Source: a virus | Length of the DNA: 64,000 nucleotides | IMG/VR virus record: IMGVR_UViG_3300045988_174698 | Reading direction: 5' to 3' (one strand) | In this document: piece by piece, positions 30,311-64,000 of the stretch | How positions within the stretch are numbered: position 1 is the stretch's first letter | How the letters are laid out: every line of letters starts with the position of its first letter | Translations under genes and position numbers: made by a program | The notes under the pieces: generated by a model | Databases searched by the model: none | What the model was told of the DNA's origin: nothing | The model's input: only the letters and a program-made list of their open reading frames with translations

Positions 30311-30311
30311 A

Positions 30312-44050: not shown

Positions 44051-46303
44051 ATGGATATAACCTACAAACCGTATATTAGAGATTCTTCATTTAAAGAATT
44101 ATCTATTAAAAGTCCTACTATTAATATTAAAGGATACAAACCTAAATATACTATTAAACAAGATAAAGAGGAGACAATTACTCCAGTAGAGTCTCCAATA
44201 GAAGAGATACAAATGCATAAGAAACCTAAGATTAAAGAGGCAACTGCAAAAGCCATAAGATTTGAATCTAAAGAGGAGTTTAAGGATACTATGATTCCAA
44301 TATATGAGTCTCTCTTAGTTAAGAGGGGTTTAAATCCAGTATTTGCCAAAGCTTTAGTAGCTCAGGATGGATTAGAGTCTGCTTGAGGGTCTAAACCATC
44401 TGGAAATTTTAATTTTGGGGGGATTAAAGGTAAAGGGGCTATTAAAAGAACTAGAGAGGTTATTAATGGTAAAGATGTCTATATAAATGATAGTTTTAGA
44501 GATTTTAATTCTCTAGAAGACTATGCTAATTTTAAGATTGACCTACTTAATAGTAATCGTTATAATGCTTTCTCAGGGAATATTTCAGAGTTTGCAGATA
44601 GGGTTCAAAAAGGAGGATATGCCACAGATCCAAACTATTCTAGGACTTTAAACAAGGTAATTGCTACTGCTAAGTATGGTGGTACTCTTAAACTTCAACT
44701 AGGAGGTGTTGTTCAAGGCAAACAATGAGTTAAAAATTGATATAAAAATCGTACATTTCAGATAAAAAGAAATATACAACAACATCAATTAATACCTATA
44801 CCAGTTACAGGTGCCTTAGGGTATAATATTCTTGCGCATAATATAGATCTTACTACTGCCTCCATAGATCCTTCTAGAGTTCCTACGGATTCTAAAGGTG
44901 TATATTCCTATGGAGGTCGTAAAATATATCTAAGAGATGACTCTCCTTCTACTGCTGTTCATGAATGAGTGCATAGTAGCAGGCCTGATCCTCAAGTTAA
45001 AGAGATAGCTAGAATTAAGAATTTACTAGGGGATGCTTTTTATGACCAAAACTCAGTTATACCTGATGATTATCTAGATGATCCACAAGAGATATATGCA
45101 AGATTAATGCAGTTTAGGTATGCCTTAGGAGTAGATCCGAATCATAAGTTCACTAATGAAGAAATTGAAGACCTTAAAAAGAAGCATGTAAAACAAATAA
45201 CTCTAACAAATAGACTTAAAGGGAAAGATCATAATAGTTTTTCTACTACGGTGTTTGATAATGAAGGTAATGTTATCAGTACAGAGCCTTATCAACCTGA
45301 GTATAAGTATATTCCAGAAGAATCTACTGTTCATAGAGAATATGATACAAATAATACTTTTCAGTTCTTAGATAGATATAGTACTGATAGTATTCGTAGG
45401 ATGTTAAATGATGTTGCACAAGTTCCTAATAAAAAGAAAAATTCTACTTTATATATAAAATTAGGATTAAAGATACCTAAATATCAACATTCTGGAGTTT
45501 TAAGAAATGCTTATAATGACCCAGAACATTATTATGATTATTCTAAAGGATCATATGATCCTGATACAGAACATTGATCAGGTAGAGATCCTGTAACTGG
45601 AATGGAATTAAAAAATCCAAACCATCCTACTGCATTTATGCACCATGAAGTAGAACAACAATTAGGGAATAAAAGATATCAAGATAGTAATGGTAGATAC
45701 TATACATTTCCAAATGGTGAAGCTCCGATCTGAAGAAACGTATATGGCCCACTTTCTGAGACTCCAGGACTCAAAGAGGTAAAATATCCGAGTTATGGAA
45801 AAGGAAAAGCCAGTGTGGAAGAAGCTATAAAAGACAATCTCCCAAGAGTACAATGAATTTGAGATCAATTAATTAGTGCAGGAGCATCTAAAGAGCAAGC
45901 AGCTGCTATATTGGGAAATTTCTGAAAAGAAAATCAAATTCAACCTTACGGTAAACCTTCAAGTAAAGGTGCTATGGGGCTTGCGCAACTTAAAGAAGGC
46001 AGATACGATAGATATATAGAATTTTTAAATAAAAATAAATTAATAGATAGTACTGAGTCTCAAATAAAATATTTGTTACCTATTATTTTTACAGATGAAG
46101 TAAATCCTCATAATTTAGATAATTATAACTCTTTTTGAAATGATTGAACAAAATCACAAAGAGAGGCTTTTAGAACTGCGAAAGGTCTAGATGATCTTAC
46201 AGTATCGTTTGCAGATAACTTTGAAAGAATGGGTAAAAAGGAAGCAGATTATGAGACTCGTATAAATGCCGCGAGATATATTTACAACTTAATGGTAAAA
46301 TAA
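44051..46303 (+). CDS. multidomain peptidoglycan hydrolase (N-terminal glucosaminidase, central HExxH zincin-like segment, C-terminal lysozyme/transglycosylase-like segment); about 750 codons, 9 in-frame TGA
   Basis: Track fragments 44051..44386 and 44969..45577 are in one frame with no TAA/TAG from 44051 to TAA 46301..46303. TGA codons fall at conserved Trp positions: DGLESAW(TGA)G...FGGIKG...GYATDPNY (glucosaminidase), AVHEW(TGA)VH, AAILGNFW(TGA)KENQIQPYGKPSSKGAMGLAQL. Confidence 0.6.
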
Positions 46304-46330
46304 TTATAAATAAATTTAATAAATACATAT

Positions 46331-46579
46331 ATGTTTGCATTAAGAAAAATTACAAATGACGGTTTAGAAATGAATTTTAGTTTAGGAGACTCTTATACTT
46401 TAGTTATAAAAGAACGTTCTCCGAAAGAATTTGAAGATAAGATGAAAGATCATCCTTTTTATGATAAAACTTATGCTTTTATTTATTGAAAAGATGAGAT
46501 ATTACCGTTATATAAAAATCAAAAAAACTATATTGTTTCTGAAAATGGGACAACTTATAGTAACTTAACATATAAATAA
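46331..46579 (+). CDS. hypothetical small protein (one TGA)
   Basis: ATG 46331, TAA 46577..46579, 82 aa. Confidence 0.4.
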
Positions 46580-46580
46580 T

Positions 46581-46772
46581 ATGACAACAATGACTTGGAA
46601 AACAAAATTAATTATTGCCACAATCGTAATTGCTTTAGTATTAGCAGGTTGTGGCATTGTGTCAGCTATGAGCTTTGGAAGTTTGTTGCTTGCATTAGTA
46701 AGTTTAGCAGTAGGAGCGGGTTGTGGTTGGTATGCTAAGCATATCTATGATAAATATTTTAAAGGTAAGTAA
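46581..46772 (+). CDS. holin-like two-TM small protein
   Basis: 63 aa, two hydrophobic helices and charged C-terminus (KHIYDKYFKGK). Adjacent to the hydrolase. Confidence 0.45.
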   Translation: MTTMTWKTKLIIATIVIALVLAGCGIVSAMSFGSLLLALVSLAVGAGCGWYAKHIYDKYFKGK

Positions 46773-46775
46773 TAA

Positions 46776-47825
46776 ATGAATACAATATTTTTTGGGCAGA
46801 ATGTTCCTATACAATCAGCAACAAAGGTTAAAATATATTATATCAATAAAACTAAACTTCCTATTAAAGTCAGTATTCGTTGAAGAGATAGAGATGTTCT
46901 AAATTATACTACTGAAACTTTAAATCTACTAGCTGCGGGAATAGTTGAACAAACAGTAGCATTAAAAGAATTTGAATCAACCTCTGGAAAGGGTCTAGTA
47001 GTTGAGCCAATAACGAATGCAATTATCCAGTCTAGTACAACCTATCCTAATTTATTTATTAAAGCTACAGTAAAAGAGGTAGCAACAGGAGATACTATAG
47101 GGACATTTAACAAGGGAGGAACTATTAGTCCTATAATGGCTACAAAAGAGTATCAAGCAACTGTTACTTTTGAATATAATTCTGGAATTTATATCAATAG
47201 TACTGCTGCTAGTTATGTTCCTTCTGTTACCAGCAATCGCCCTACAATAACTGTATTTAGTGATGCTGATTCATATGGTATTACTGGAATATTTACACAA
47301 GACACAGCAGTAACTTATGCTGATATAGAAGGAGATGGTTATACTCATTATATTAAAGTAAATAACTGTAAGAATATTGCATTAGATAGATATATTAGTG
47401 GAACTAATTCTGGATCTAACTCTAGTATTAGTTATTCAGATTTATATCCAACGGATATAGGAACAATAGATATCGGCAAAACTTTATTTTTATGAGTAAA
47501 ATCATTTACATATGAAAAAGAATCTACTCCTACTCCTGATCCTTCAATTAGTTGTGATGTTTATGTATGTAGTCGCAATAATTTAAATAACACAGAATGT
47601 AGTATAGATATATATGAGGGGTATGGAACAACAGGAGTTCGTTTAGCCAATCTATCACTGGCCCCTGGGGAAGGAAATTGAGTTTCATATCAAGGTGGAT
47701 ATAGAACATTCAGTTCCATACGTTTAAATTCGATTTTAAAGGGAACCCAGATAACTATCGCATTAAATGGGTCTCAAGTAAGTGATTGAGTAAATGAAAC
47801 AACTAAATATGTTTGAATTAATTAA
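46776..47825 (+). CDS. hypothetical Ser/Thr/Asn-rich protein (possible virion or lysis accessory), 4 in-frame TGA
   Basis: ATG 46776; track fragment 47136..47495 in the same frame; no TAA/TAG until 47823..47825 (349 aa). Confidence 0.5.
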
Positions 47826-47866
47826 AAATAAAAAGGGAGCTACTTAGCTCCCTTTTTATTTTCATA
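47826..47866 (+). terminator. rho-independent terminator
   Basis: AAAAAGGGAGCTA-CTT-AGCTCCCTTTTTATTTTC immediately after the stop of 46776..47825. Confidence 0.6.
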
Positions 47867-48004
47867 TTGTTTTGCGCTTATAATAAAGCATACTAGACTT
47901 AGTAATATATATATAGGTTGCAGTACTTTAGTACTTGTTATAAAAAATATTCCCATAAATATCAATCCTATAACATATCAAAATTTATACATTTCCAAAT
48001 TTTT

Positions 48005-48040: not shown

Positions 48041-48066
48041 TTGCATTTTGTTTTAAAGCATCCATA

Positions 48067-48453
48067 CTATCTTTTAGGTACACCTCCAAGTTTATCAGCT
48101 CATCTCTCTGAGAAAAACGAGTAATAAGATCTTTTAGACTTTGGGGTATGGACAGCTGCTCAAATAATACTAGGCAGTCCTATAATTAGTAAATAGAGGG
48201 GGCCTAAATATAAAGATTGTCGAGTATGTCCTCATTCATGTTCTTTTGTGTAATTTCTGTTATATTTCCAACTTGATTCTCCCATTAAGATATATAATCC
48301 TAATGAAATACCTCCAGGAAAGTCTCCCGCATAAATTGGAATTTCCCTAAAAGTTTCTTTGTACTCTACATTATAGCACCAAGTTAAAATAAGACCGAGA
48401 AGACACTGTGGAAATTCCCATATCCATCTCAGTATTTTAATATACCATTTCAT
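48067..48453 (-). CDS. hydrophobic protein with HEWGH motif, TGA-recoded
   Basis: Track ORF 48232..48453 ends at TGA; read-through (4 TGA) to TAG at 48067 gives 128 aa including ...TKEHEW(TGA)GHTRQ... and hydrophobic stretches. Confidence 0.4.
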
Positions 48454-48468
48454 ATAATATTTAATTTA

Positions 48469-48948
48469 TTATTTATAGTAAATTTGTTTAAATTGTTTTC
48501 AAAGTGAGTATTGAGCATCTATTGCTTCTTGTTCTCAAGGTCTTAACATATAATCCAATGAAGAATCAAACTGCTGTCCCTTTCATAAGAATACTAGTTT
48601 AGAGTCTTTTTTCACAAGTTCAAGATCTCTCCTTTCGTATTGATCAAAATGTTGCATTTCATGACATATAATAGTACTAAGACTATCAGATAACTTAGTT
48701 TTTAATAATAGATTATATGTATGAGGCACTGGTGTTTTATCTAATAGAGCTTGTAGTTCACATTCCTCAGTTGAAAATTTATTTAAGATTTTATCATTAT
48801 ATTGTACTAAGATATTTGCATTAGTATAGTCAAATATTTTAGTTCCTATGACTTTAATTAATTCCTCCACATCATATTGTTTTGGAGATTCAATTAATGA
48901 GGTTACTTTAAATGTCTCAGGGAACTCTAATTTAGATCTTTCCTTCAT
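48469..48948 (-). CDS. hypothetical protein with HEMQH zinc-motif, TGA-recoded
   Basis: Track ORF 48583..48948 ends at TGA; read-through (3 TGA) to TAA at 48469, about 159 aa. Confidence 0.4.
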
Positions 48949-48979
48949 ATTATTTAAAAACTAGTTATTATAACCTCTA

Positions 48980-49417
48980 TTAAACTCGTAGTTCTCCATA
49001 TTGGTTTCTCATTCTTGGAGATATTCCTAAATGTACCCATGTAGTAGACCCACTTTTTTCAATAAAGCATTGATCTATAATGACTTTATTTCTAGTAAAA
49101 TAATCTTTAATAAAGTTAAAGAAGTTTTCTACTCCTTTAACAGAAGTATCTTCAGGTTGTAAATCTACTGCTTCATAGTATTGATGAGAGCTATTACTTA
49201 CGCCCCCCACAGCTTTATTAAGGCTTGGCGATCTATATCCAGAAGTAATAGTAATAGCAGAGCCTCATGCTTCTCTTAATGGATCTAAATATTCTATAGC
49301 TAGTTTACTTAGTTTTTCTATTCCCTCTCATGTAGGTAGATTTTCTATTTTTTTACTAATAGCTGTATCACTTCTTAAAAGTTCACTTAATTCAAAATAT
49401 TTAGGGGTATTTATCAT
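48980..49417 (-). CDS. peptidase M15-family (VanY / L-Ala-D-Glu peptidase-like) cell-wall hydrolase, two in-frame TGA
   Basis: ATG 49417; the frame passes two TGA (LPTW, REAW) into track ORF 48980..49210. Contains ITITSGYRSP and SNSSHQYYEAVDLQ (SGxRS...S.H..G.AVD of the M15 family). Confidence 0.6.
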
Positions 49418-49518
49418 AATTTAATCTATAATATATAATTTACCAAATTTCTCTAAAATCATATAAATATTTATTTGCGCTTTGATTTTCTTCCATGTCG
49501 TCATTTTTATACACCTCC

Positions 49519-49797
49519 TTACTTCTTATTTCATTTACGGCTATTGGCAGCAAATGTTGCTCGTTTTCTAATTGCTGGATCGGGGGATCTTTTGCCTTTA
49601 GCTATACACTCACTAGTTACTTTCCCACCACAATATTCTGTAAACTTACCTCTATTTTTCTTTTTAATATGAATCTTAGAACCTTTTTTCATCATTTCTA
49701 TGTACCCACTTGTAATATTATCTAGTCCGAGATTGTTATGATACTCTGTACTATATACCTCTACAATTTTGTTTAAAATGTCATTGTTATATTTCAT
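49519..49797 (-). CDS. hypothetical basic small protein
   Basis: Track ORF 49531..49797 ends at TGA; four more codons to TAA at 49519. Confidence 0.35.
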
Positions 49798-49965: not shown

Positions 49966-50658
49966 ATGGCAAAAACAAAACCTGATATAGATTCTGGACT
50001 TTCATGACTAGAAAGAATCCTACAATTATGTAAAGAGTATGGAGTATTTAATATTTTGAAGGGGTTATTTATTCTAATTATGTTAAGTTTAACACTTAGG
50101 ATTTGTTACAATCCTAGTTTTTTATTTGACAAATATACTGACTACATGACTCAAAGACATGCGAAAGAGTTACATAAAAGGACAGAATATGATCAACAAA
50201 TAAAAAGTCTCCTGCCTGTATATTTATATAAATATCATGCAGATAGGATATGAATTATTCAGTACCATAATGGTATTATGGACTGACAACATGGAACTAT
50301 GAGATTTGAATTATGTAATGATGAAGTTGAATCAATTAAAAATCAATATAATGATTTTAATCTAACCTGGATTAATCTTCCTTATTATTTAAAGACGAAC
50401 GAAGTATTTATAGGGGATATGGTTAAATTAGATAGTATTGATTCAACTCTTTATACACAACTCAAAAAAAATAATGTACAATATTTAGCCTGTACAATTA
50501 TAAAAGATAATAGTGGTTATCCAATTGGTATTTTAGGAGTGACTTGGAAAAATATTCCACCAAATATTGATAGATTACAAAATAAAATACATAACTATCT
50601 TATAGATGATAGAGCAGATATTAAAACTCTTATCCAATCTAATTATAATAAAGAATAA
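49966..50658 (+). CDS. hypothetical protein (230 aa), in-frame TGA codons
   Basis: ATG 49966; track fragments 50056..50253 and 50299..50658 share its frame; no TAA/TAG until 50656..50658. Confidence 0.5.
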
Positions 50659-50667: not shown

Positions 50668-51606
50668 ATGCCTAAACTTAGAGGGAGTAAATTAAAATAT
50701 GTTAATGGGTATGCAGTAGATAAAGAAAATGATAATATTATATACTCTGATGAAAAGCATATTTATATGGATAAGACCGATAATTCGAAATATGAATCTG
50801 TAACGACAATAATAGGACAGTACTGTCAAAAATTTGATTCAGACTTTTGGTCATCATATAAAGCTTGTGAGGCGTTATTAGACCCCACAGTGTTTTACCC
50901 ATTAAAATCAAAACTTCTTTCTTCTAAAAAATGAAAGGAGTCTTATATTGAAGAATATGGATTAGATCCTGTTGAATTTCTAAATAAGAAATCTGAAATC
51001 CTACAAAGTTATGAAGATAAGAGGAATGCTAGTACGGAACGTGGTACTAAAATTCATGCTATGATGGAAGATCTATTTTATCAAGGGGATAAAAAGGCAA
51101 TAAGCAAATATGCAGGAGGAGGAACTTTTGAGGTAAAGAAGGGATATTATAAACTAGATATTGACAGGGCAATTTATCCTGAGTTTCTTATAAGTTATGA
51201 ATTTGACGAATACTTAAAGATTGCTGGTCAAATAGATTATTTACAGATAAGTGATAATGAGATAGTTTTGTTAGATTGAAAGACTAACGGTAAGATTGAT
51301 AAAGAGTCTTATTTTGATAGAACTACTAAGAAAAGACAGATGATGCTCTCACCATTAGAAAATATTATGGATTGTAATCTATGTCACTATCAGTTACAAC
51401 TTAGTATGTACGCATATCTTCTTCAGAAGATTAATCCTAAATTCAAAATAAAAAAGCTAGCAATTGTTCATTTTGATCACGACGGTAATGAAACTGAATA
51501 TGAAGTAAAATATTTAAAAGATGATATTGCCAGACTTCTTTTATATCATAGGAAGAAGAATAAAATAAAAGCAGAACTTGATAGAGACAAACCAATAGTA
51601 TTTTAA
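50668..51606 (+). CDS. PD-(D/E)xK nuclease (YqaJ / lambda-exonuclease / Cas4-like fold), two in-frame TGA
   Basis: One frame from ATG 50668 through track fragments 51061..51279 and 51340..51606 (312 aa). Motifs TKIHAMMED ... GQIDYLQISDNEIVLLDW(TGA)KTNGKI (D...E.K core with the Trp at the recoded codon). Confidence 0.55.
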
Positions 51607-51612: not shown

Positions 51613-51852
51613 ATGATTATGGAAAATGTAGATGATTTATATGAAAATAGAATGAAGATTTGCAAAGAATGTCCTCTATATCTAGATAGTCCTATGGGAG
51701 CTAGATGTAATTCTAGGCTATATTTATCCGAAGCTGATAAAAAGACAGTAAGTGATAGACCCAAATTAGGATATAAAAGAGGTTGTAACTGCATGTTACA
51801 GAGAAAATTACGTATGCCCGCTGCAAAATGTGTTGTAGGGAAATGATAAGAT
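51613..51852 (+). CDS. zinc-ribbon small protein
   Basis: Track ORF plus one terminal TGA codon then TAA; CKECP...C..C...CNC cysteine pairs. Confidence 0.4.
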
Positions 51853-51854
51853 TT

Positions 51855-52073
51855 ATGAGAAAAATATTACATACAATTAAAAATATTATAATAGGGTGAT
51901 ATCGTAGATTCTTTAAACCTATCCCTGATTGAGCTGAAAGAAGATATAAGGTATGTTTAAACTGTCCTCATAAAGAAAAATTATTTGGAGAATACTGATG
52001 TACTTTATGTGGATGTAATTGCTATAGTAAATCATTAGTAGAAGATGAACAATGTTATGATAATAGATGATAA
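51855..52073 (+). CDS. zinc-ribbon small protein, TGA-recoded
   Basis: ATG 51855, 4 TGA, TAA 52071..52073; CLNCPH...CTLCGCNC. Confidence 0.35.
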
Positions 52074-52100
52074 TGTATAATTTTAAAATAATAATGAATT

Positions 52101-52625
52101 ATGAGTAAAGAAAAGTATCTAGGAACTGATTACTATCAGTTAACAGGAAAACATTTAATGGGCAATAATATTAAACGTGAAATTGATCCTGAAGCACTTA
52201 AAAGGGCACAAGAAAAATCAGAAAGAGATCAAATGGAGTATGTAGCTAATTTAATGGCAAAAGATAAAGATTGCAAACCATATGAGAATAAGAAAATTGT
52301 TCCTACGGCAGGTAGAGTAGTTGTATTACCTTACGAAAAGAATCCTTATCGTTTACCATTACATGAAACCACCTCTGGACTTATCTTAGGTGATTTTGAA
52401 ACATCTGCAACATATAAATCACAGGAAACTGGAGAACAAGAAGCCTCACAGCGTGGTATTTGGTGTTGTAAAGTTATTGCTGTTGGTAATGAATGTAAAA
52501 GTGTATTAGAAGGGGAAGATGTATATATTAATTTTACATTAGCTGCGCCACTCCCCTTTGGTGGAAAAGGATACTATACAATCAGTGAAAATAATATTAT
52601 TTGTAGTATAAGAGATAATGAATAA
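52101..52625 (+). CDS. hypothetical protein
   Basis: 174-aa ORF with standard TAA stop and no TGA. Confidence 0.5.
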   Translation: MSKEKYLGTDYYQLTGKHLMGNNIKREIDPEALKRAQEKSERDQMEYVANLMAKDKDCKPYENKKIVPTAGRVVVLPYEKNPYRLPLHETTSGLILGDFETSATYKSQETGEQEASQRGIWCCKVIAVGNECKSVLEGEDVYINFTLAAPLPFGGKGYYTISENNIICSIRDNE

Positions 52626-52653
52626 GATGCACTAAAGGTGAATATAAAAAGTT

Positions 52654-52905
52654 ATGGATATGAATGAAAATTTGAATAAAGAAGGTAACTCATACCTATT
52701 TTACACCCCTGGTCAGCTTGTAACCTTAAAACATAAGGAGCTAAATTCTCCAATAATGCTTATTCAAGAGAAAGTTACAAGGCAGTTTAAACAGGGAGAT
52801 CAGATGTATAATATCTTCAAGGGTATGAAATGTATTTGATTTGATAAAAATAATGTGCTGCAAGAAGCAGTATTTTCAACAAAAGATTTGGAATTATATA
52901 AATAA
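52654..52905 (+). CDS. hypothetical small protein (one TGA)
   Basis: Track ORF 52654..52839 extended through TGA to TAA 52903..52905 (83 aa). Confidence 0.4.
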
Positions 52906-52913
52906 ACAATCAT

Positions 52914-53138
52914 ATGACTTTACAAATTGATGGATTTATAGTTACAGGGACGCCTGATGAGGTAAATACTTTTATTAAACTGTATCAGGTAAAACAATAT
53001 ACCATTGTTAATTCCCAACAACCAATTATACCATTATATTATTCCCCTGATACTGATATTAAAAAGTGAGAGATAACTTGTAAAGATAGTAGTAATATTA
53101 GTAGTAATATTAATGGTAGTGTAGTTAAACCAGAATAA
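52914..53138 (+). CDS. hypothetical small protein (one TGA)
   Basis: ATG 52914, TAA 53136..53138, 74 aa. Confidence 0.35.
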
Positions 53139-53140
53139 GT

Positions 53141-54001
53141 ATGAATAAAGAAGACTTAACTCAGTTTATAGAGTGACTCCCAGTTAATATTAATGAGTTT
53201 AAAGATAAAACTCCTGATGAAGTAGTCACTATTCTAAATAAATTAGCCCAAACAGAAGAGGGGTTAAATGAAATATCTGGTCTTATTAGTCAATTTAAAC
53301 AAAAACAGATGTTTAAATTTGGGGGTAAATTAGGGCAACTTATTAATAAATTTCAACAAGGAGGAAAATCTGATCAGAGAAAATCTGATAAAGTAAGAAA
53401 AAATTTTCATGGAGTTAGTTTATTTGAATATGGTCCTAATAAATATAAAACTGCAAGAGGCACTTTAGTTAGAGATTTAAAACCAGGAGTTCATCAAGAA
53501 ACTCTTCCTAATGGTATAGGTCTAAGACAGATTACTAGAAATAATACTACAACATCAGAATTAGTATCTCCAGATAAAAGGGATACATTATATATTAATA
53601 ATGCAGATGCTGGAAGAATTGACAGTAATATTAATGATGCTGGTATATTAGGTAAATTAGGATTACGGACACCAACCCCTGTAAGTTCTAATTTTAGAAG
53701 ATTACAAGGTATTTTTAATGCCAAAAAATTTAATACAGGAGGAGAGGTAACTAAAGATGGATACAAGTCTAGTTCTGTAACAAATCCTGATGGTTCTATA
53801 AAACAAACTTTAAGATATCCTTCTGGGAAAGAAGAATATAGAACTATAAGTAGAGACAAACAAGATACTATATATACTAATAGTGTCAATGGTATTACTA
53901 GAAGAAATAATCCTAAATGATACCACTTTGTTGACAAAGAAGCTAATAAAAAAGGCTATGCAGAAAGACAAAGACGATTTAATGAACATTACAAAGAATA
54001 A
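53141..54001 (+). CDS. hypothetical virion-module protein (286 aa), two in-frame TGA
   Basis: ATG 53141; track fragment 53309..53920 in the same frame; TAA 53999..54001. Confidence 0.5.
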
Positions 54002-54585
54002 TGACAGATATATTCCTTTATAATAATACTACAGGATCTCTTGAACTTAATGTTCATGAGATCCTACTTGTAAAGGAGTTTGAGGCATTATGAGACTTAG
54101 ATAGAAATAAATGTAGTGAAGATCCTACAGGTAAAAAGAGACTACGAGCATGAAAAGAATTTAAATATATTTGATTATTTGCTGATTGGAAGAGTCCATA
54201 TCAACAATATTTAGAGATGGAAAAACACAAAGCAGCTATGGAAGATTCAGGACTATCTGATGAAGAATGAAATGATCCCACTTTTAGAGCTGCCGTTAGA
54301 AAATATATTGAAATTAAAGATTCTTCTCGTATTCTAAGTCTTATAAAAACTGCCTTCAGAACTCTTGAAAAGATGAGAGTATCATTAGACAATATTGACC
54401 TTGAAGAAAGAGATCCTGTAAATAACAAACCAATCTGAAAAGCTAAAGATATTCTTGATAGTATTGGTTCTATCGGCACTATGACTGATAAGTTAAAGGA
54501 ACTAGAACTAAACTATAAGAAAGATCAAATTGAAAGTAGTTCTAAAGTTAGAGGTGGTTTGGAGCGAGGATTTATGGATGAGTAA
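54001..54585 (+). CDS. hypothetical protein, possible terminase small subunit by position; 6 in-frame TGA
   Basis: ATG 54001 overlaps the previous TAA. Codon-by-codon read shows no TAA/TAG until 54583..54585 (194 aa). Immediately precedes the TerL gene. Confidence 0.4.
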
Positions 54586-54591: not shown

Positions 54592-56910
54592 ATGGCGAAA
54601 AAACTAAGTATTGAAGCTGAAATGAGAGCTGCTCAGAGAGATATGAAGAAGAAGTTGAGTGGTGAAGATAAGGAAGAGGTAAAGAAGGTTAAAAAGAAAG
54701 CTAAACCAGTAAAAGAACAATATAAGGAAATAAAAGAATCTCTTAAAGAAAAAGAGGCTCCTAAGGAAATTGCTTTTAAAGATAATTATGAAGAGGAATT
54801 AATTAGGGAATTATTTAAAGGTGATATTACTGTTTCCCAAGCTCTGGGTAAAGAAGATGAGCCTGAACAACCTAAAAGAGAGAAAAGTGGATTGTGGGAT
54901 TATGTTCTCGAAGATGAAATAGAATTCTTTGACCCTGAATGTAGTTATGAATTGACTGGTTATAGACCTATAGATGAAACTCATGGATTAGATTTTGATC
55001 CAGCACCTTTTTGTGAAGCGGGAAGAGTCTATACTGAAACTGGTCACTATACTGAATATCCGTCTGGATCTAAACCATATGCTGATTTCTGACAAGAACA
55101 ATTAGATAGATGCATTAATGGTTATACGATTGGTAAGTATAGAATTACTGGAGATAATTATTTCTTCCTTAATTTTTATAGGATGCCTGTTGTAGACGAT
55201 TCTAAAAAACTGGCGGAAGCTTCTGGAGAAGGATTTCCAAAATTTGTAGCAGAGCAATATAAATTCTTTCATTATTTTGAAATGTGCGAACTACTTAAAA
55301 AAGACTGCGTTGCACTAAAAAGCCGAGGCATAGGCTGAAGTGAGATAGGAGCTTGTTTAGGAGTTCGTCCATTTATAACAGGAAGAAATTTTAATTCAAC
55401 ATATATTACTTCTTCACTAAACTATCTGGAGCCGACATTAAATAAATGTTGAGCCCAGCTTCATTTTTTAAATGGAAACACCAACGGTGGATTTAGAAGA
55501 CCTATGATGAAGATTAACAATGCTCTTCATAAAAGAACTTCTCTTACTGATAATGAAAATCGCGAATGAGGCAGATTAAATAATATAGAAGGAATTGTAG
55601 CAGATAATATTAACAAAGTCCGTGGTATTCGTTCTAATAGACTTTTCTGAGAGGAGGGAGGGTCCTTCAAAAATCTAGAGACTGCTTGAATTAAAGGAGA
55701 GGCATTAGTAACAGTTGCGGGTGCTAGAAAAGGCATTATGAGTGTCTGAGGTACAGGAGGTGATTCAGATGCTTCTGCACTAGAGGGTCTATCTAAAATG
55801 TTTAATAGTCCAAAAGAATACAATGTACTTCCATATAAAAATAATTACTCTGAGGATGGTGAAGTTCAATATACTGGTTATTTTATACCCGCTTTTAATA
55901 TTATGCTTAAAAAAGGTTTCTATGATAATAGAGGAGTTACAGATAGGAAAAAAGCAAGAGAACATTATGAAACTGAAAGAAAAAAGAAGTCTGGGCAAAA
56001 TTTATTAGATTATTGTGCAGAATTTTGTTTCACCCCTAGTGAGGCATTATTAAAACAAGGTGATGGTATTTTTGATCCAGTACTTATAGCAGATCGTTTA
56101 ACTCAACTTCGTATACAAAAAGTAGGGGTAAAACCACAACAAGTTGATTTGTTATGAGATGTTCCAAAAGGGTCAGAAAATAATCCAAGAAATAAAGTTA
56201 AACTTATTCCTAATCCACAAGGAAAAGTATTTATATATGAACCTCCTCTTAGAGACGGAGAAGGGAATCTTTATAAAAATCTCTATGTTGCAGGAATTGA
56301 CTCTATTGATCAAGGTACTGCAGATTCCTCAACAAACAATGATGTGTCTGATTTTTGTATAGTAATTAAGAAAAGAACATTAGGTTCTAGTTCTCCAAAT
56401 TATGTTGCAATTTATAAAGATAGACCTAGAGACATTGCTACGGCTTATGAAAATGCTATGAAATTATGTATCTATTATAATTGCAAAGCGATGTTAGAGC
56501 ATACAAAAATTAGTATTATTATGTATTTTCGTTCTAAAAAGAAAGATAATCTTTTTATGAAGAGGCCAAAATCAACGATGCCTGATATTCGAAAAGGTAA
56601 CTCTGGAATGATTGGATACCCCGCAACTGAAACGTATCTACGTCACGGACTTGAATTAATTAGTAGATTTGTAGATGAATCTTGTTATTCTATGCAGATT
56701 GATGAAATGCTGGAACAATTACTTAAATATTCCTGGGAACATAAACGTAAATTTGATATTGTTGCAGCTATGGTAGCTGCTGAATTAGGGGATGAAGACC
56801 TTTTAGGATTTACTCCAAAGGCTCAAGATGAAGTAAGAAATTCATGAAAGGATTTTGGATGATATTATGATTTAAATGGGCAAAAACGATATGGAATTAT
56901 ACCTTCGTAA
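54592..56910 (+). CDS. terL: terminase large subunit, about 772 aa, about 12 in-frame TGA
   Basis: Track fragments 54592..55092, 55798..56157 and 56344..56847 are one frame with no TAA/TAG from 54592 to TAA 56908..56910. Contains the deviant Walker-A-like KSRGIGW(TGA)SEIGA (TerL K/R-S-R-x-x-G pattern) and a C-terminal nuclease-like YVAGIDSIDQGTADS. Size and position fit TerL. Confidence 0.65.
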
Positions 56911-57199
56911 AGAAAGTAATCTTGAGTGTAGAGTTAGAGAACTAATTAACCAAGTTACACAGTCTAAGTATATTTCTCCTATTGATGTTAAGTATGAAGA
57001 TGGGATATATACATTAAGACTTGGATTAAATTGTAAAGATGCAGCTCCAATATCTTTTGGGTATCAAGGTAGTGAAGAAGGATTTTTAAAATTTTTAGAA
57101 AAAGAATTTAGAAAGAGAAAACTTCAAAATATTAATTATACTACAGGAGTACTTATAAATGGAGATAGTAATTTGCATTTTCCAATAATAGAGTTATAA
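56876..57199 (+). CDS. hypothetical small protein
   Basis: 107-aa standard ORF overlapping the TerL 3' end by 35 nt in another frame. Confidence 0.35.
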   Translation: MGKNDMELYLRKESNLECRVRELINQVTQSKYISPIDVKYEDGIYTLRLGLNCKDAAPISFGYQGSEEGFLKFLEKEFRKRKLQNINYTTGVLINGDSNLHFPIIEL

Positions 57200-57201: not shown

Positions 57202-59768
57202 ATGAATGTTGATAGAGAAATAAAACAAATTGACAAAGCTATAAGTGAGTTAATATACCCTAAGATAGCACTTCAAAAAGCTTATAATTACTATCACAGT
57301 AGACGAGATGCAGATCAGTTTAGGCATATTGAAGAAAATTATGGTATTGGTGTACCCACTGGAATTACATTTAATCCTCTTGTTCGCCCTCATATAGATA
57401 GGTTAATTGGAGAATATTTAGGATTAAATCAAGATTTAAAAATAACATGTAAAGATGAGGAAACAGTTTCTAATATTATGAGAGAAAAACAATTATTAAT
57501 TAGTAAAGAACTGTTTAATTATCTAAAAAAATATTTAGAAAATAATATAATATCTTCTATTATTAACAATGAAGAAGTTTCAACGGATCCATTTATTGAG
57601 AAACAATTAAATAAAATTAGTAATAGCATTAATGATTCTTTTGTATCTCAATATGAAATTGCAGCTCAGAATATTCTTGACTATTTAAAGCAGTCAAAAA
57701 ATATAGATTTAACAAATAAAATGCATAGTCTGCTTACAGATTTATGTATTACTGGTACATGTTATTATAGAGTAAGACCTTCTAACAGTGGAGATAATAT
57801 ACAATTTGAGGTATTGAACCCTATTAATACATTTGTAGAAAAAAATCCAAATTCAGACTATTTAGCAGATTCATACCGTGTAGTGGTTAGAAGGTATATG
57901 TCTGTAGAAGATGTTTTACTAGAATATCGTAAAGATCTAAAGGAGGAACACATAAAACTTCTAAAGGAAGAGAATAACAGCACAATTGAGTCAGACGGTC
58001 CTTCTTATTATATTAGAGCCACATCTCCTGAAATAGCTGGAGTTTGAAACAGTACTCATACTGGAATTTTAGGGGGACTAGAAACACATCCTATATGACC
58101 AGGTGAAACTAGCAGAACTAATAGGTACACTTACCCAAAAATGTGAACTGTTTATGATGTAGAATGAATTGAAGTTGATTATAAAACAGGAAAACAGACT
58201 AGACATGAAGGTACACGTATTGGAGAAGAAATTTATATAACTAGGGGGGAATCTGAAAATATTATTAGAACAAAAGATAATCCGAATAAATGTAGATTAA
58301 GTGTTAATGGTTTATTTTTCCTAGATAAGAATGGAGATCCAAACTCCTTGATTATCAAGACAATGGATCAACAGGATTAAGATTATATGAGTCCTGTCTA
58401 AACCTCGTGAATTGCTGGAAACTCTTAAATTGAATGAAAGTAAATCTAAGACAATCAGCAGCCAAGCTCGTAAGAGAAGGTTCAACGACTATCCTGAAAG
58501 GGAGTACACTCAAGTGAGTGGAAGTGCGGGGGCAAATTTGATTTAAACTAATTATAAGTAGTTATGAAATATAACGAAATAGAATTTAAAAATCTAGTAG
58601 CTACAGAATGTTTTTCAACAGATTTATTTGAATTAGTTTTAGAACAAATTTGTATGATATAGTCTAATCTATATGGTGACATATAGCAGTCGCAAGACGG
58701 GTGTAAATTAACGACTTACACTGAATAAAAATGAAATATGACTTATTAGTATTTTATCGAGATAACTTAATTTCTAGTTCAGGTACTGTTGGAGATTGAG
58801 TTGACTTAGCTTATGTACCACAGGTTTTAGGAGTAGATTTACCAGAACGATTACAAAAATGATTAGCTTATAAAAAGCAAGGTATGGGCTTAATTGATAG
58901 TAGTCAAGAAGGAGCTCAAACAATGAATACGATATTTAATGGTTATGATGATACTATTAAAGCACAAAGTATCCAGGCAATTAATTTAGCTATACAATCA
59001 ATTCAACAACAGGTTTCTATGGTCACTGGTGTTTTACCTGAGGCTCTAGCTCAGTATGAACAACGTGATGCTGTTTCAAATGTTAAGTTGGGAGTACAAA
59101 CTACAATGCTTTTAACTAAGCAAATTTTCAATGCTATGGATACTGTATATCAAGAAGCAAATTATGATATGCTTAACCTTGCGAAACTAGTTTGACCAAA
59201 AGGAATAACAGGCACAATTGTTTTAGGTAATTATTCCAAAATATTTACAGCCCTTCCCCAATATTATACCTTAACTGATTTTGATATTCATATTGAAGAT
59301 AGTACTAAATCTTATCAGAACGTACAATCATTAATTGCAATCAGTGGAGAGCTTGTTAAGAGCGGAGTAGCAGATTTAGGAGATATTACAAATATTATAA
59401 CTGCATCTTCTATTACTGAATTAAAGCGATATATTGATCGCTCTATAGCTCGTAAAAAAGAGGAAAATGATACTATTGAACAGTTACAACAACAAATTCA
59501 ACAGTATGAACAAAATTCTAAAGAACTTCAAAAAGTTAATCAACAATTACAAGAACAAATTCAACAGCTACAGAATCAATTACAAGCTAATAATCAAACT
59601 AAACTTGAAATTGAAGCAGAAAAGGTTGCAATTGAGAAAGAAAGGATGAGGAATGATAAGGAATATAATGATAAGAGTCTAGAAGTTAAAAATAAACAAA
59701 TTGATGCACAGGTTGCTGAGATATATGATGATAATCCGTATAATAATAAAATAAAAAGTGTAATATAA
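57202..59768 (+). CDS. portal-like protein split by a group I intron (exon 1 57202..about 58380; exon 2 about 58724..59768)
   Basis: Exon 1 frame (392 codons, 4 TGA) runs into a stop at 58378. A different frame opens at 58707 and runs (2 TGA) to TAA 59766..59768 with a Gln-rich coiled-coil tail. A group I core lies between them. Position after TerL and combined size (about 740 aa) fit a portal. Exact splice junctions not determined. Confidence 0.4.
58381..58723 (+). mobile_element. group I intron (ORF-less) in the portal-like gene; boundaries approximate
   Basis: R element GGTTCAACGACTATCC (58479..58494) and S element GATATAGTCTAA (58656..58667) in the correct order and spacing; P9-like hairpin GTGTAA-ATTAACGAC-TTACAC (58701..58721). 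No ORF inside. Confidence 0.5.
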
Positions 59769-60568
59769 TGAGTAACTTAAATGTTCGTTTAATAGTTTAT
59801 CCAAATTGCAAATTGTCTGCTATTGATGATAGTAGTTATACTAATCTGCCAGGTAGATATGGGACATTATTTGAAAATATAGCGGATTATGTCTCTTTAG
59901 AGTTTCTAGTATATTCTAATACAAATGAAATTGAACCCAATACTTTAATTTTTGAAAACTATCAACATAACAGAGATAATTTTTTAACAGATAGTATTTT
60001 TCCAATTATAAAAGATGGAGTTCATCATTATTATAAAATAGTTATTCCCAAACTAGAAACTCTATTTATCAAAGATACTCCTTCAGAAGATTTATACTCT
60101 TTAATATATTTAAAAGATCAGACATTCTACTATAACAATAATTTTTATGTTGCAAAACAGAATTATGAAACTGCTCCTACTTCTAAAGAGGAACTATTAA
60201 ATAAAATTGATCTTATTTTAAAAGAATCTGAAGCAGAAATTGTAACTAATTATATTGATCTTTATAAACTGTGTGGCAGTCAATCTTTTTGCTGCAAAAA
60301 AACAGTATTTACAATTTGCAAATTAACACAATGTTTACTAAATTTACAACGCCAAATTATAGATCATGCTATTTATAATAAGTGTGCTGATTATAAAGAT
60401 ATTATAGAAAAAAGAGACTTTATTCTAAGTACAATTTATGTTCTAGATTATTTAAAGGATATTAATAATTTTCAGGAAGCACAACGTATTGTAGAAAATG
60501 TTCTGGGATGTAATGATATTTGTAATACAGATAATACATTAAATAACAATTGCGGGTGTAATGGATAA
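59768..60568 (+). CDS. hypothetical protein with Cys-rich C-terminus
   Basis: 266-aa standard ORF (TAA stop, no TGA); ATG overlaps the previous TAA. Confidence 0.5.
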   Translation: MSNLNVRLIVYPNCKLSAIDDSSYTNLPGRYGTLFENIADYVSLEFLVYSNTNEIEPNTLIFENYQHNRDNFLTDSIFPIIKDGVHHYYKIVIPKLETLFIKDTPSEDLYSLIYLKDQTFYYNNNFYVAKQNYETAPTSKEELLNKIDLILKESEAEIVTNYIDLYKLCGSQSFCCKKTVFTICKLTQCLLNLQRQIIDHAIYNKCADYKDIIEKRDFILSTIYVLDYLKDINNFQEAQRIVENVLGCNDICNTDNTLNNNCGCNG

Positions 60569-60758
60569 ACTATATGAAACTTTATATATCCTCTATTCTA
60601 CTGAGCTAGTAAATCTAAATATTGGATATTCTTTAGATAGAAAGAAACTAAATCAAATGATAGATATTATAGGAGCAATAGAATATATAAAAAATACTAA
60701 CAATGATCAAGAGGATATTATTAATATAATTAATTACTATAATAAATATATCAACTAA
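60561..60758 (+). CDS. hypothetical small protein
   Basis: 65-aa ORF. Confidence 0.35.
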   Translation: MDKLYETLYILYSTELVNLNIGYSLDRKKLNQMIDIIGAIEYIKNTNNDQEDIINIINYYNKYIN

Positions 60759-60765
60759 ATTAATA

Positions 60766-63700
60766 ATGGTTTCGGATACATATTATAATGCAATGGGTTC
60801 ACGCTCATTTTATAAAGGTACATCTTTTAGATGTACAGAATGATGCTTAGAAACTCACTACTTTAACAATGAGGACTTTATTGATTTTGTATCATATAAA
60901 GGGGCTCTTCTTAGATGTACAAGAAGTCATATTTCCTCTGTTGATAATGAACCATCTCTTGTTATTAATAATAACTTAATTGTTGGAATTAATGACTCTC
61001 CTGTTTGGGAATTTATAATGGGAGGAGGATCAATTGAAACAGGTCAATTAAATATTGATTTCAAACTAGAAGACGGCCATCTTTGAGTTTTTTGTAATGA
61101 AAAATGGAAGGACTTAGGAAATGTTAAAGGAGATCAAGGTGAAACTGGAATACAAGGAATACCAGGAGACCCTGGTAAGGGAGTGCCAAGTGGGGGTAAT
61201 ACAAATCAGGTACTAGTAAAACAGTCCAATTCTGATTATGATACTATTTGAAAAACTATAAATACTTCTGGAGGAGAGCTCCCAACGTTTTCTGCAAAAG
61301 TATTGAGTACTACTAGTACGGAGGATGCTCCAGAAGCTACTGTAACTTTAAGTGACTCTAATGAATTTCAGTTTTCATTTAAATTACAAAAAGGACAAGA
61401 TGGAGTTAATGGTACTCCAGGAATTAATGGAGACGGCTTAAAGTACATATATATTCGAACTACTAAAGCAAATAAGCCAACAACTCCAACTGGTAGCGGA
61501 GAAGATGTAGAGTTGCCTACTGATGTAGAGTGGGGTCTATGAAAGTCTTCCCCTACAGGTGTAGATTCTACATATAGATGGGAATGAGTTAGTGCTAGTG
61601 TTTATATTAACGGTAGTTGAGAGTCTTATAGCGAACCATCTTTATTTGCTTATTATGCTCTTGACGGAGTTAATGGAACTGCTCCAAATTATAAAACTTA
61701 TGTTTATGCTCAATCTAACTCTAAACCAGAGAAACCCGACTTCAATACTCCTCAACCTCCTACAGAATCACAATGAAAAGATTATCCATTAAGTAGTGGA
61801 CAGTGATGGCAATGTATAGGAGTTGTAGATGGGCAAACAAATACAGTTATTCAATGAGGAGAAGTATTACCTGTAAATGGTAAGGACGGAACTGCTCAAG
61901 ATGGTAAATTTACTGAGTTTAGATTTGCGGTAAATAGTAGTAATATTACCCCTCCAAGTCTATCAAATACAGTAAGAACTCCAGAGGGATGGTCTTTAAC
62001 ACCTCCAACTAAGAGTAACTCTCAATACTTATGGATGACAACAGCAGTTATTAATCCTAATGATACTTTATTTAGAAATTGATCTACACCAATATGTATT
62101 AGTGGTGAAAATGGGGAAGCAGGACCTACTGGTGCAACTGGAGCTGCAGGTAATTGAACTTCTTATGTATTTAAAAACAGTTCCTCTACGCCAGATACTC
62201 CTACAGGCACTGATCCTGTCCCCACAGGATGATCTGATGCACCAACATCATCAGATGGTACTTGATGAATGTCTAAAGCATTAATTAGTGGAGTTACTCA
62301 AAAAGTGGTTGGAGAATGATCCGCTCCACAACGAATTACGGGAGAAAAGGGACAAGATGGTGAAGACGGAACTAATGGAACTGATGGGATTTATACAGAT
62401 TATAAATTTGCAAAAAGCTCTTCCAAAAGTGAAGTGCCATCAATTAACAAACAAAGTTCTAATCCTGGTAGTAATTGAAGCGATCAATGGCCCGTAATTA
62501 ATTCTGGAGAATTTCTCTGAATGACTTTTATTAAAAAGAATTCTAAAGATGATTCTATTGTATTAGGGGAAGAATGAGCAACTCCTGTATGTATTACAGG
62601 AGAACAGGGTCCTCAAGGTCCTATTGGATCTACAGGAGCATCAGGTACTCCAGGTGTGGGTATTGTTATGAGATTTTGTAATGGTACTGACACAGAGCCA
62701 AGTAATGCTAAACCAACAAATACATTAGATACTGCAAGTCAAGGATGAACTGTTACTCCTCCCTCAACTACAGAAGATTATCCTAGATTATGATTTATAC
62801 AGGGTAGAATAAAATATTTAAATAATGAGGATCGAGATGGGCAACTTGATGGTAGTTGAAGTGATCCTGCATTGTTTAATGGGCCTGCAGGAGTAAATGG
62901 AGAAGCAGGTAAAAAAGGTCAACTGATTTATCCAGCAGGTGTTTATGATATAAATACTACATATAGTACTACTGAAGAAAGTGCTCCTTATGTCTATGTC
63001 TATAATTCAGAATCTAGTAAATCTGGATACTACTTATTATCAGCAGTTACCAGTTGAACAGGAACTGATCATAATAATTGGTCTCCAGTTGAATCAATTG
63101 ATAATGAAGAGCATTATTGGACTAAATTTAACCACTTTGAGGCAATTTTTGCGGATGTGTCTATTTTCCCCAACTCTCTTGTTGGATCAGCTGTTTTTAA
63201 TGGAGATTATATGTTTAGTCAAACTGGTAAAGAGTCTACAGGAATAACTACAAATTATAATAAGTTTGATCCAGAAGATCTATCCAAATGATACCCTGCT
63301 TACTACATAAATTTGAGAACAGGTGAATGCTCATTAAATTTTGGCCAATGTACATTTAAATATTCAGATTTATTTAATTCAAGAACAGTAATGACTATTG
63401 AAGGAGGGATTAATATAATCCCAGATATGATATCTCCATCTAGATATGGTAGTTATATTTCTACACCTTGTATTTCAATTTTGGCAGATGAAGAAGGATT
63501 AGCAAACGGTAATATATATAAATTTGCCTTGTCAGAAGAGTACCTACCTATTACTAAGGGAGTTATTAAGGGTTCTATTGATAATTGTACATATTTAAAT
63601 GGACTAGAAGAAAATGATGAAGATTATGTTGCAATATCTCCAGCAGAAAGTACAAGTAGTAGTAAGGGAATAATAAACTTTGTGACATATCAAAACGGCA

Positions 63701-64000
63701 CCATACGAACTACAATATCTGAAATATACCTTGGGGCTGGCAGAACTTTATCATATTCATTTGTGCCAATTAAATATTTAGGAGACTCGCTTTATAGCAC
63801 GTATACTTCTATCTTTGATGTTGCAGATACAGAAGATGGAACAGCTGCTTATAGAGGTATATCTGGTATACTAAATATATCTAATGTTAATGATTTTGTA
63901 TTAATTGTTTGCCATCAACCAGGACAGGGTATACAATATGGGGGTCTTACTTTTACAAAAGCTGGGTCTTTCCTAGTTTCTAAAGTTCTTGATGTTAACC
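60766..64000 (+). CDS. tail fibre / receptor-binding protein with collagen-like Gly-X-Y repeats (3' end beyond window), over 20 in-frame TGA
   Basis: ATG 60766. Codon-by-codon reading shows no TAA/TAG through 64000 (more than 1,075 codons); track fragments 61303..61542 and 62872..63057 lie in this frame. Collagen-like runs GDQGETGIQGIPGDPGKGVPSGG, GENGEAGPTGATGAAGN, GEKGQDGEDGTNGTDG, GEQGPQGPIGSTGASGTPGVG, GPAGVNGEAGKKGQ. Confidence 0.65.

Follow-up and report, generated by a model that had tools for sequence, protein, structure and literature searches.

In the 64,000-nt window, the whole stretch of viral DNA analyzed here, the plus-strand genes from 44 kb onward are broken up by TGA codons when read with the standard code, which raises the question of whether TGA is a sense codon in these genes, which amino acid it would specify, and how it would be decoded. 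Translated with code 11, positions 44051-64000 fall into 36 ORFs with a mean length of 113 aa and a coding density of 61.4%, while under code 4 they form 26 ORFs that average 249 aa, at a density of 96.8%. A control in which TAG was read as sense gave a mean of 110 aa and a density of 67.6%, which we counted as no gain, and in the 5.3–15.1 kb block density and ORF length were unchanged under code 4. Standard gene callers fail on the arm, as the initial annotation had stated; they shred it, and its annotation therefore needs a code 4 or mixed-code caller.

The codon counts point the same way. Sixteen plus-strand ORFs in 44051-64000 reach 80 aa or more (5501 codons); their coding frames contain 74 TGA, 17 TGG, and neither TAA nor TAG, the two off-frames of the same ORFs holding 197 and 405 TAA and 159 and 157 TAG. 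With TGG alone the Trp content of these ORFs would be 0.31%, and with TGG plus TGA it is 1.65%. The terminators of 73 called ORFs are TAA (58) and TAG (14), and almost never TGA. TGA is a sense codon in the late arm. The initial annotation had described the late plus-strand genes as split by TGA only, with TGG used alongside for Trp, and both statements agree with these counts; its wording that “almost every” such gene is split at TGA holds for 13 of the 16 ORFs, three being free of TGA (52101-52625, 56876-57199 and 59768-60568) and the portal gene being split by an intron as well.

With TGA as sense, the arm opens with a tail-associated lysin of 750 aa (44051..46303, plus strand; 11 TGA, 0 TGG), in which a profile search places a Glucosaminidase domain at residues 97-207 and a Phage_lysozyme2 domain at residues 602-748, in frame across the TGAs. 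Two plus-strand ORFs of no assigned function follow (46331..47825; 82 aa with 1 TGA, and 349 aa with 5 TGA and 0 TGG), and then a four-ORF lysis cassette on the minus strand (48067..49797; 3, 3, 2 and 1 in-frame TGA), which includes a TGA-using Peptidase_M15 endolysin (48980-49417). Back on the plus strand are a membrane-anchored ORF of 230 aa (49966..50658; 3 TGA, 2 TGG), a PD-(D/E)xK exonuclease (50668..51606; phrog_298, PF12705) with TGA at codons 89 and 204, the latter within LLDWKT, and five small to medium ORFs (51828..54585; 81, 174, 83, 286 and 194 aa with 4, 0, 1, 2 and 5 TGA), the TGA-free 174-aa product being GroES-like. The terminase large subunit (TerL; 54592..56910, plus strand; 772 aa, 10 TGA, 2 TGG) is covered unbroken from residue 139 to 765 by profile phrog_6681 (2.8e-61), its best annotated matches being Crassvirales terminases at ~30% identity. 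A collagen-repeat tail fibre (60766..64000, plus strand; 23 TGA, 10 TGG) is cut by the window end after 1077 codons; the ORF of the relatives has 1096 codons. The long genes proposed at the outset, a hydrolase of 750 codons, a TerL of 772 and a tail fibre of more than 1,075, are thus each a single frame with TGA-only interruptions.

One gene of the arm does change frame, and the change at 58378-58733 in the portal gene is the one point in favor of a reading in which pseudogenes, assembly errors or frameshifted fragments make up the arm. The portal protein (phrog_6547) is encoded by an exon of 392 codons (57202..58377, plus strand; 4 TGA) and one of 344 codons (58734..59768, plus strand; 3 TGA), separated by 356 nt (58378..58733, plus strand) that match the group I self-splicing intron model RF00028 at 67.1 bits, the gathering score being 50. 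The 5' splice site lies after U58377 and the final intron base is G58733; excision is precise and in frame, with a predicted spliced product of 736 aa, and the intron is missing from precise intron-less alleles of relatives. As judged by these sequence features, the frame change is a group I intron and is unrelated to TGA. All other genes are single-frame, profile matches cross TGA codons in the lysin, TerL and a LicD-family gene, and the same TGA sites are conserved across independent assemblies from many samples. The intron, the single frames and the conserved TGA sites refute the reading of the arm as debris, which we consider to have a negligible probability: the recoding involves no frameshifts, an alternative the initial annotation had itself raised, and the sole frame change is the intron. 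A megablast search of the arm against GenBank phages returned a single match, of 40-55 nt, inside this intron. Rfam scans of the whole window missed the intron and a local scan detected it, so further introns may have escaped detection.

The identity of the amino acid was evaluated from relatives and from standard-code homologues. At the window TGA sites, relatives have TGA 551 times and TGG 111 times, followed by TAT, ATT and TTT with at most 6 each. TGG occurs in at least one relative at 42 of 86 window TGA sites and, conversely, TGA occurs in a relative at 14 of 18 window TGG sites; at codon 204 of the exonuclease, for example, relatives have TGA (7), TGG (1) and TAC (1). In X-masked alignments, the TGA positions face W, F or Y, and nowhere G, both in standard-code structures of RNase HI and glucosaminidase and in six crAss-like TerLs. 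TGA112 of the lysin pairs with the W of the ESGWG motif of PDB 7qfu; at TerL sites 167 and 287, every standard-code crAss TerL aligned has W, the remaining sites being W, F or Y; and for a minus-strand RNase H (1219-1677; 3 in-frame TGA), W is found at TGA103 in all RNase HI structures aligned, at TGA89 in 3h08, and at TGA119 in E. coli. The interchange and the alignments support the assignment of TGA to Trp in the recoded genes, as the initial annotation had suggested. Two of the three motifs that it quoted stand, ESAWG (W in 7qfu) and LLDWKT (TGA, TGG or TAC in relatives), but KSRGIGWS does not, the standard-code crAss TerLs having F or Y rather than W at this position.

The same data bear on two other meanings of the codon. 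Under code 25, TGA would encode glycine, as it does in Absconditabacteria and Gracilibacteria phages, a reading with no support other than in-frame TGA itself; across all relatives and all sites, GGA is found at 1 of the 86 TGA sites, compared with TGG at 42, and the lack of interchange with GGN and of alignment to Gly refutes it, leaving it extremely improbable. Context-dependent read-through and selenocysteine insertion, for which we found no point in favor, are refuted just as firmly and we give them practically no weight: the base 3' of TGA is A, C, G or T at frequencies of.39,.10,.31 and.20, the same as after any codon, so that no special read-through context is required, and the 98 in-frame TGAs have no following-base bias; TGA swaps with TGG and not with TGT or TGC, and a tRNA-Sec is absent.

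Use of TGA as sense is also seen outside the plus-strand late arm described in the initial annotation. That arm is recoded, but the recoding is not limited to it, because the minus-strand RNase H, an HNH endonuclease gene (4268-4837, 2 in-frame TGA), the LicD-family gene (19203..20081, 4 in-frame TGA, with a full-length Pfam profile match across two of them) and the M15 lysin use TGA, as do two further minus-strand ORFs (2502-3005 with 4 and 3263-3871 with 2 in-frame TGA) and the lysis cassette as a whole. RNase H, LicD and HNH contain TGA yet are not clearly late genes. A minus-strand block of 13 genes (5359..15413), by contrast, fits the standard code, with 34 TGG and a lone TGA that is TGG in three relatives; its contents include amidoligase, GATase, COOH-NH2 ligase, Peptidase_C26, IMPDH-like and HD-domain genes. 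Between the late arm and this early block, the TGA:TGG ratio falls from 74:17 to 1:34 (Fisher p = 7e-17). A region compatible with the standard code therefore stands alongside recoded genes in one genome, and TGA use varies gene by gene. Furthermore, three early genes, all on the minus strand, appear from their context to end at genuine TGA stops, each TGA lying exactly at a gene junction and being backed by TAA or TAG: a probable terminator at 15410..15412 forms an ATGA overlap with the start of the next gene and has a back-up TAG 8 codons downstream, another at 30312..30314 lies in a TGA-T-ATG junction at which the length of the read-through tail varies among relatives, and at 29594..29596 TGA is followed by GCT TAG as a tandem stop.

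Since the early block shuns TGA and a few early genes stop at it, the genome seems to be written for two decoding states. We consider it very probable that the window derives from a Zeta-group crAss-like phage of ~167 kb in which TGA encodes Trp in late and scattered other genes, and in which two decoding states gate the late genes. In the lysis, packaging and virion genes, as in a scattering of others, TGA is an ordinary Trp codon, and these recoded genes are terminated by TAA and TAG only. Early in infection the standard code of the host would apply, such that TGA-free genes would be made and recoded genes truncated; later, UGA would be read as Trp, which would open the genes for lysin, terminase, portal and tail. 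Through early truncation and later UGA reading, the recoding would thus gate late genes at translation, a role already proposed for it in other gut phages. Both the temporal switch and a UGA-reading agent are inferred; the timing of expression is deduced from gene function only, and the presence of TGA in RNase H, LicD and HNH counts against the switch.

A tRNA block spans 15705..35748 on the minus strand and holds 12 canonical tRNAs, a tmRNA and two aberrant tRNA-like genes, with no UCA or CCA anticodon. In the 64-kb window, a UCA-anticodon tRNA was not found by ARAGORN (run with default and with relaxed settings, both allowing and disallowing introns), by the Rfam tRNA models (gathering and E-value cut-offs), or by a custom scan (5-bp stem, YU-UCA-RN loop, T-loop), and it is absent from the tRNA-block loci of 23 relatives. 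Nor was it found in the ~81% of a 167,649-bp relative genome (93-100% identical) that was covered, ~32 kb (~97-129 kb) lying outside this scope; the covered part has no tRNA beyond the tRNA block. The aberrant genes (34724-34852 and 34988-35092) were rejected as hidden suppressors because they have no UCA in the loop and are not conserved in the nearest relatives. Neither a release factor nor a TrpRS turned up among those window proteins that were scanned, and, like the missing UCA tRNA, this counts against the main reading. The window also has no tRNA-Trp and no recognizable factor directed at RF2.

The code resembles translation table 4 of Mycoplasma and Spiroplasma, which is genome-wide and fixed in the host, in that TGA is Trp beside TGG and the stops are TAA and TAG; it differs in its gene-specific use within one genome and in that TGA is still terminator-like for a few early genes. 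A host that is itself code-4-like, which the phage would simply match with no switch, could account for the missing suppressor tRNA (in the window and ~81% of the relative) and for the near absence of TGA terminators noted above. Such a host would not, however, require a 13-gene block with 34 TGG and 1 TGA, nor three early genes that stop at TGA precisely at junctions, and the host predictions published for the clade are standard-code bacteria; we therefore regard a code-4 host as very unlikely.

Somewhat less unlikely, although still improbable, is that no phage suppressor tRNA exists and that RF2 is disabled or outcompeted late in infection, with host tRNA-Trp(CCA) wobble-reading UGA. The missing UCA tRNA in the window and in ~81% of a near-identical genome is consistent with this, and some relatives encode a tRNA-Trp(CCA) with a U11-A24 pair, the arrangement that characterizes the Hirsh UGA suppressor of E. 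coli. A suppressor tRNA is carried by only ~35% of published code-4 phages, and none was detected in four of the five genomes of the opal Zeta clade (PMC12386605, 2025). On the other hand, the window holds neither a tRNA-Trp nor a recognizable anti-RF2 factor (~32 kb of the genome being outside the scope), and wobble is usually inefficient for genes with 10-25 TGA codons. Our best guess for the decoder is a phage-supplied or phage-induced Trp-tRNA activity, either missed by tRNA finders or encoded in the remaining 19% of the genome.

The phage is probably a Zeta-group crAss-like phage, as judged by the genome size of its relatives, its features and its database neighbors. The crAss-like gut phage named in the initial annotation is borne out by the TerL and portal profiles, both of crAss-like type, and can be narrowed to this group. 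Relatives with 93-100% identical proteins have genomes of 164-171 kb, of which the window represents a 64-kb fragment; they carry inteins in TerL, and LAGLIDADG and HNH ORFs are present. Relatives also carry ORFs of 2584, 2064 and 1467 codons, which may or may not belong to a block of giant multidomain proteins (an RNAP-like transcription block) such as marks the Zeta group. Zeta crAss-like phages have genomes of 145-192 kb, TGA reassigned mainly in late genes, self-splicing introns as well as inteins interrupting conserved genes, and suppressor tRNAs that are not always detectable (Yutin et al. 2021, PMC7886860). The present phage shares the TerL and portal, the genome size range, late-gene TGA, introns, inteins and the missing suppressor tRNA, and we find no essential difference; its relatives include ENA human-gut contigs of the kind analyzed in that study. 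With the opal Zeta clade and phage Lera (PMC12386605) it shares a GC content of 30-33%, the tRNA block, the occurrence of TGA in the genes for TerL, structural proteins and lysin, and an assignment of TGA to Trp inferred from homologues. Lera, unlike the window, has tRNA-Sup(TCA) and tRNA-Sup(CTA), the genomes are larger (173-180 kb versus ~167 kb for relatives of the window), and a tmRNA, encoded here, is not mentioned there.

Agate and Jade, code-4 gut phages of other lineages (Borges et al., 10.1101/2021.08.26.457843), likewise have recoded structural and lysis genes, variably recoded replication genes, early functions that fit the standard code and a proposed gate on lytic genes; Jade carries a code-change operon (suppressor tRNA, TrpRS, RF1), none of which was observed in the window. 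The late-gene logic of stop reassignment is also that of the TAG-to-Gln crAss-like phages (Peters et al. 2022, PMC9523058), which differ in codon and amino acid; the published metaproteomic validation is of TAG-to-Gln, not TGA-to-Trp, which is supported here at the sequence level.

Published work on the Zeta group has already described late-gene opal-to-Trp recoding, along with introns, inteins and missing suppressor tRNAs; the finding is therefore correct and not new. It adds another clean example of stop-codon recoding that would gate lysis and virion genes, an idea also already published. It is possible, although doubtful, that roughly 100 UGA codons in every 64 kb are read as Trp with no recognizable suppressor tRNA, release factor or TrpRS, and that this, if genome-wide, is an undescribed route of code switching. 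If true, the candidates would be a non-canonical decoder RNA, RF2 inactivation combined with wobble by tRNA-Trp(CCA), or the clade-conserved phage tmRNA. The lineage is a very common and abundant one among gut phages. UGA decoding with no detectable suppressor tRNA is a known gap, and so abundant a lineage could be used to address it.

The window has a G+C content of 31% and is organized in two divergent arms, one on the minus strand running from about 43 kb down to position 1 and one on the plus strand that starts at 44 kb and continues to the end. Genes of the plus arm specify a tail lysin (44051-46303; Pfam Glucosaminidase and Phage_lysozyme2), a PD-(D/E)xK exonuclease, a GroES-like protein, the terminase large subunit (TerL, 54592-56910; phrog_6681, E = 2.8e-61), a portal protein split into two parts (phrog_6547) and a tail fibre with collagen repeats. 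Among annotated proteins, TerL is best matched by Crassvirales terminases (about 30% identity), and a single unannotated contig from human gut matches it at 44%. Because of these TerL matches, and because many contigs of 164-171 kb in IMG/VR, ENA and Logan encode proteins with 93-100% identity to its own, the window is a 64-kb piece of a common crAss-like gut phage of about 167 kb. Close relatives include IMGVR_UViG_3300045988_159576 and ENA OLVX01000015.1, and the phage's ferritin-like protein turned up in more than 1,400 data blocks. Where the strands switch, two plus-strand paralogues (39660-40421 and 42969-43751) are preceded by iteron-like direct repeats at 39304-39559 and 42780-42852 (plus strand; for example GTTTAAAAATRCAA, in four copies), which may be operators or an origin. 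In L089, a related contig that covers the late arm past the end of the window, the segment 103-14035 holds giant ORFs of 2584 and 2064 codons with 13 in-frame TGA codons each, which probably form the crAss-type transcription or virion block.

From the sequence alone, the initial annotation had proposed that the late arm (44051-64000) is written with TGA as a sense codon, and the ORF, density and codon counts on this arm confirm the observation. The lysin (750 aa), TerL (772 aa) and tail-fibre genes were found at the sizes claimed. In a simple gene call, a change from code 11 to code 4 (TGA read as Trp) turns 36 ORFs with a mean of 113 aa into 26 ORFs with a mean of 249 aa, and coding density rises from 61.4% to 96.8%; with TAG read as sense instead, as a control, the mean is 110 aa and the density 67.6%. 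Sixteen plus-strand ORFs reach 80 aa or more (5501 codons in all); their coding frame contains 74 TGA and 17 TGG codons, with TGA present in 13 of the ORFs, and the remaining two frames of the same ORFs contain TAA, TAG and TGA by the hundreds. With TGG alone, the Trp content of these ORFs is an implausible 0.31%, versus a normal 1.65% with TGA and TGG together. Single-frame profile matches span the TGA codons, and frameshifts or pseudogenes were rejected as the cause of the fragmented arm.

The assignment of TGA to Trp is supported by two lines of evidence. First, a codon-by-codon comparison was made between the window and ten related contigs, with TerL proteins 70-99% identical to its own. 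At TGA sites of the window, the codon in the relatives is TGA in 551 cases and TGG in 111, any other codon appearing at most six times (mostly TAT, TTT and ATT); at TGG sites it is TGA in 48 cases. Counted per site, TGG occurs in at least one relative at 42 of 86 TGA sites, and TGA occurs in a relative at 14 of 18 TGG sites. Since the two codons interchange at homologous sites, they act as synonyms. Second, in an independent test, TGA positions were masked as X and the proteins aligned to standard-code homologues. In RNase H, TGA103 falls on the Trp that is invariant in all RNase HI structures, TGA89 on a Trp in 3h08 and TGA119 on a Trp in E. coli RNase HI; lysin TGA112 falls on the Trp of ESGWG in 7qfu. 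Against six crAss-like terminases, TerL sites 167 and 287 are Trp in all aligned sequences, site 366 is Trp in four of the six, and sites 249, 353 and 386 are Trp, Phe or Tyr; Gly was found at none of the TerL TGA sites in this alignment. The KSRGIGWS site of TerL, which had been taken for a family Trp motif, is Phe or Tyr in standard-code TerLs. Code 25, in which TGA is read as Gly, was rejected on the lack of Gly at the aligned TerL sites and on the interchange of TGA with TGG. The base 3' of in-frame TGA is distributed as after any codon. Neither a read-through context nor a SECIS-type signal plays a part, and selenocysteine was rejected.

The portal gene is split by a change of frame of which TGA is not the cause. 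A local Rfam scan identified a group I intron in this gene (RF00028, 67.1 bits; gathering score 50). Intron-less alleles in six close relatives fix the portal junction as CAACAGGAT|AAATATGAC and thereby the intron bounds at 58378-58733 (356 nt, plus strand); other relatives contain the intron. It is preceded by U, its last base is G, and its in-frame excision yields a portal protein of 736 aa. Because whole-window Rfam scans missed this intron, further introns may be hidden in the window. In many relatives (TerL proteins P0006-P0013, P0041-42 and P0110) the terminase gene is interrupted by an intein with a LAGLIDADG or Hom_end endonuclease domain, the proteins being 1074-1143 aa long; the TerL of the window has no intein.

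The initial interpretation of TGA as Trp is supported, with corrections on the portal break, on the TerL motif and on the extent of recoding, which is not restricted to the plus-strand late arm. On the minus strand, in-frame TGA codons occur in RNase H (1219-1677), two ORFs (2502-3005 and 3263-3871), an HNH endonuclease (4268-4837), a cassette with a Peptidase_M15 endolysin lying within the late arm (48067-49797), and a LicD-family gene (19203-20081), where an end-to-end Pfam profile match spans two of four TGA codons. The LicD-family gene adjoins an IspD/TarI-like cytidylyltransferase gene free of TGA (together 19203-20742, minus strand, within the tRNA block), and the pair may serve in cell-surface modification. 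A 13-gene block on the same strand (5359-15413) is nearly free of TGA: the ratio of TGA to TGG is 1:34, versus 74:17 in the late arm (Fisher p = 7e-17), and its lone TGA is TGG in three relatives. The block encodes an amidoligase, a glutamine amidotransferase (GATase_6/7), a phiEco32-like COOH-NH2 ligase, Peptidase_C26, an IMPDH/GMP-reductase-like protein and an HD-domain protein, and resembles a module for nucleotide or DNA-base modification. A relative's replication module shows a similar division, its individual genes being either TGA-rich or TGA-free.

Three further TGA codons of the minus arm lie exactly at the ends of early genes: in an ATGA stop/start overlap (15410-15412), in a TGA-T-ATG junction (30312-30314), where the length of the read-through tail differs among relatives, and in a TGA GCT TAG tandem (29594-29596). 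Each has a back-up TAA or TAG close by, and the three look like genuine terminators, so that TGA appears to have two meanings in one genome. The gene-end stops and the nearly TGA-free block are at odds with a host whose code permanently assigns UGA to Trp and which the phage simply matches. The dual use of TGA fits an infection that would begin in a standard-code cell, with the reading of UGA altered later.

The RNA genes of the window lie in a minus-strand block (15.7-35.7 kb) and comprise 12 canonical tRNAs, a tmRNA and two aberrant tRNA-like genes. None of the window tRNAs has a UCA or CCA anticodon, tRNA-Trp is absent, a custom anticodon-arm scan of the window found no UCA-type decoder, and the window proteins scanned include neither a release factor nor a TrpRS. 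The aberrant genes (34724-34852 and 34988-35092, minus strand) score over the Rfam tRNA threshold, and have anticodon loops of 6 or 8 nt without UCA and inserts of 57 and 39 nt in place of the variable arm. The first is similar to tRNA-Leu(UAA) in its 5' half; an identical copy of the second occurs in one relative only, the contig L030. Their lack of conservation in the nearest relatives excludes them as an essential UGA decoder, and their loops were a further ground for rejection; they may be pseudo-tRNAs. A search of a 167,649-bp relative and equivalent contigs, covering about 81% of the genome (all but some 32 kb of the late arm), revealed neither tRNAs nor members of other Rfam families beyond the tRNA block.

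Some TGA-recoded relatives do encode a tRNA-Trp(CCA) (L030, 20453-20525; contig L041, 2555-2638). The D stem of the L030 copy contains a U11-A24 pair, the configuration by which E. coli tRNA-Trp reads UGA (the Hirsh suppressor). The tRNA-Thr(UGU) of the window (19004-19086, minus strand) is 83 nt long, and its long extra arm is atypical of Thr tRNAs; its counterpart in several relatives has 72 nt. The tmRNA (21905-22326, minus strand; Rfam 52 bits) is conserved in the clade, where its tag peptides end in AA, such as AKNTVRKMANKVMPLATPMRAQVAFAA. The window copy, about 98% identical to that of a relative, is not called by ARAGORN and lacks two nucleotides (GT) of the 3' acceptor strand, with loss of the G3-U70 pair; the missing bases may reflect a defect or an error in sequencing. 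In a phage with recoded stop codons, a tmRNA may have a bearing on the rescue of ribosomes at UGA.

The window agrees in all tested respects with the published picture of Zeta and code-4 phages. The Zeta group of crAss-like phages was defined by Yutin et al. 2021 (PMC7886860), with genomes of 145-192 kb, plentiful introns and inteins, reassignment of TGA to Trp or TAG to Gln chiefly in late genes, and suppressor tRNAs not detectable in every case. A 2025 study (PMC12386605) describes an opal-recoded Zeta clade whose five genomes have 30-33% GC; in four, no suppressor tRNA was detected. Borges et al. (10.1101/2021.08.26.457843) reported that only 35% of code-4 phages have a TGA suppressor, and put recoding forward as a gate on lytic genes; metaproteomic validation of stop-codon recoding covers TAG to Gln only (PMC9523058). 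Near-identical genomes are already public, including ENA human-gut contigs like those used by Yutin et al. The decoding of UGA without a recognizable suppressor tRNA is a gap already acknowledged in the literature, here narrowed by the search of about 81% of the genome, in which no such tRNA was found. Both TGA recoding and its use by this lineage are already known.
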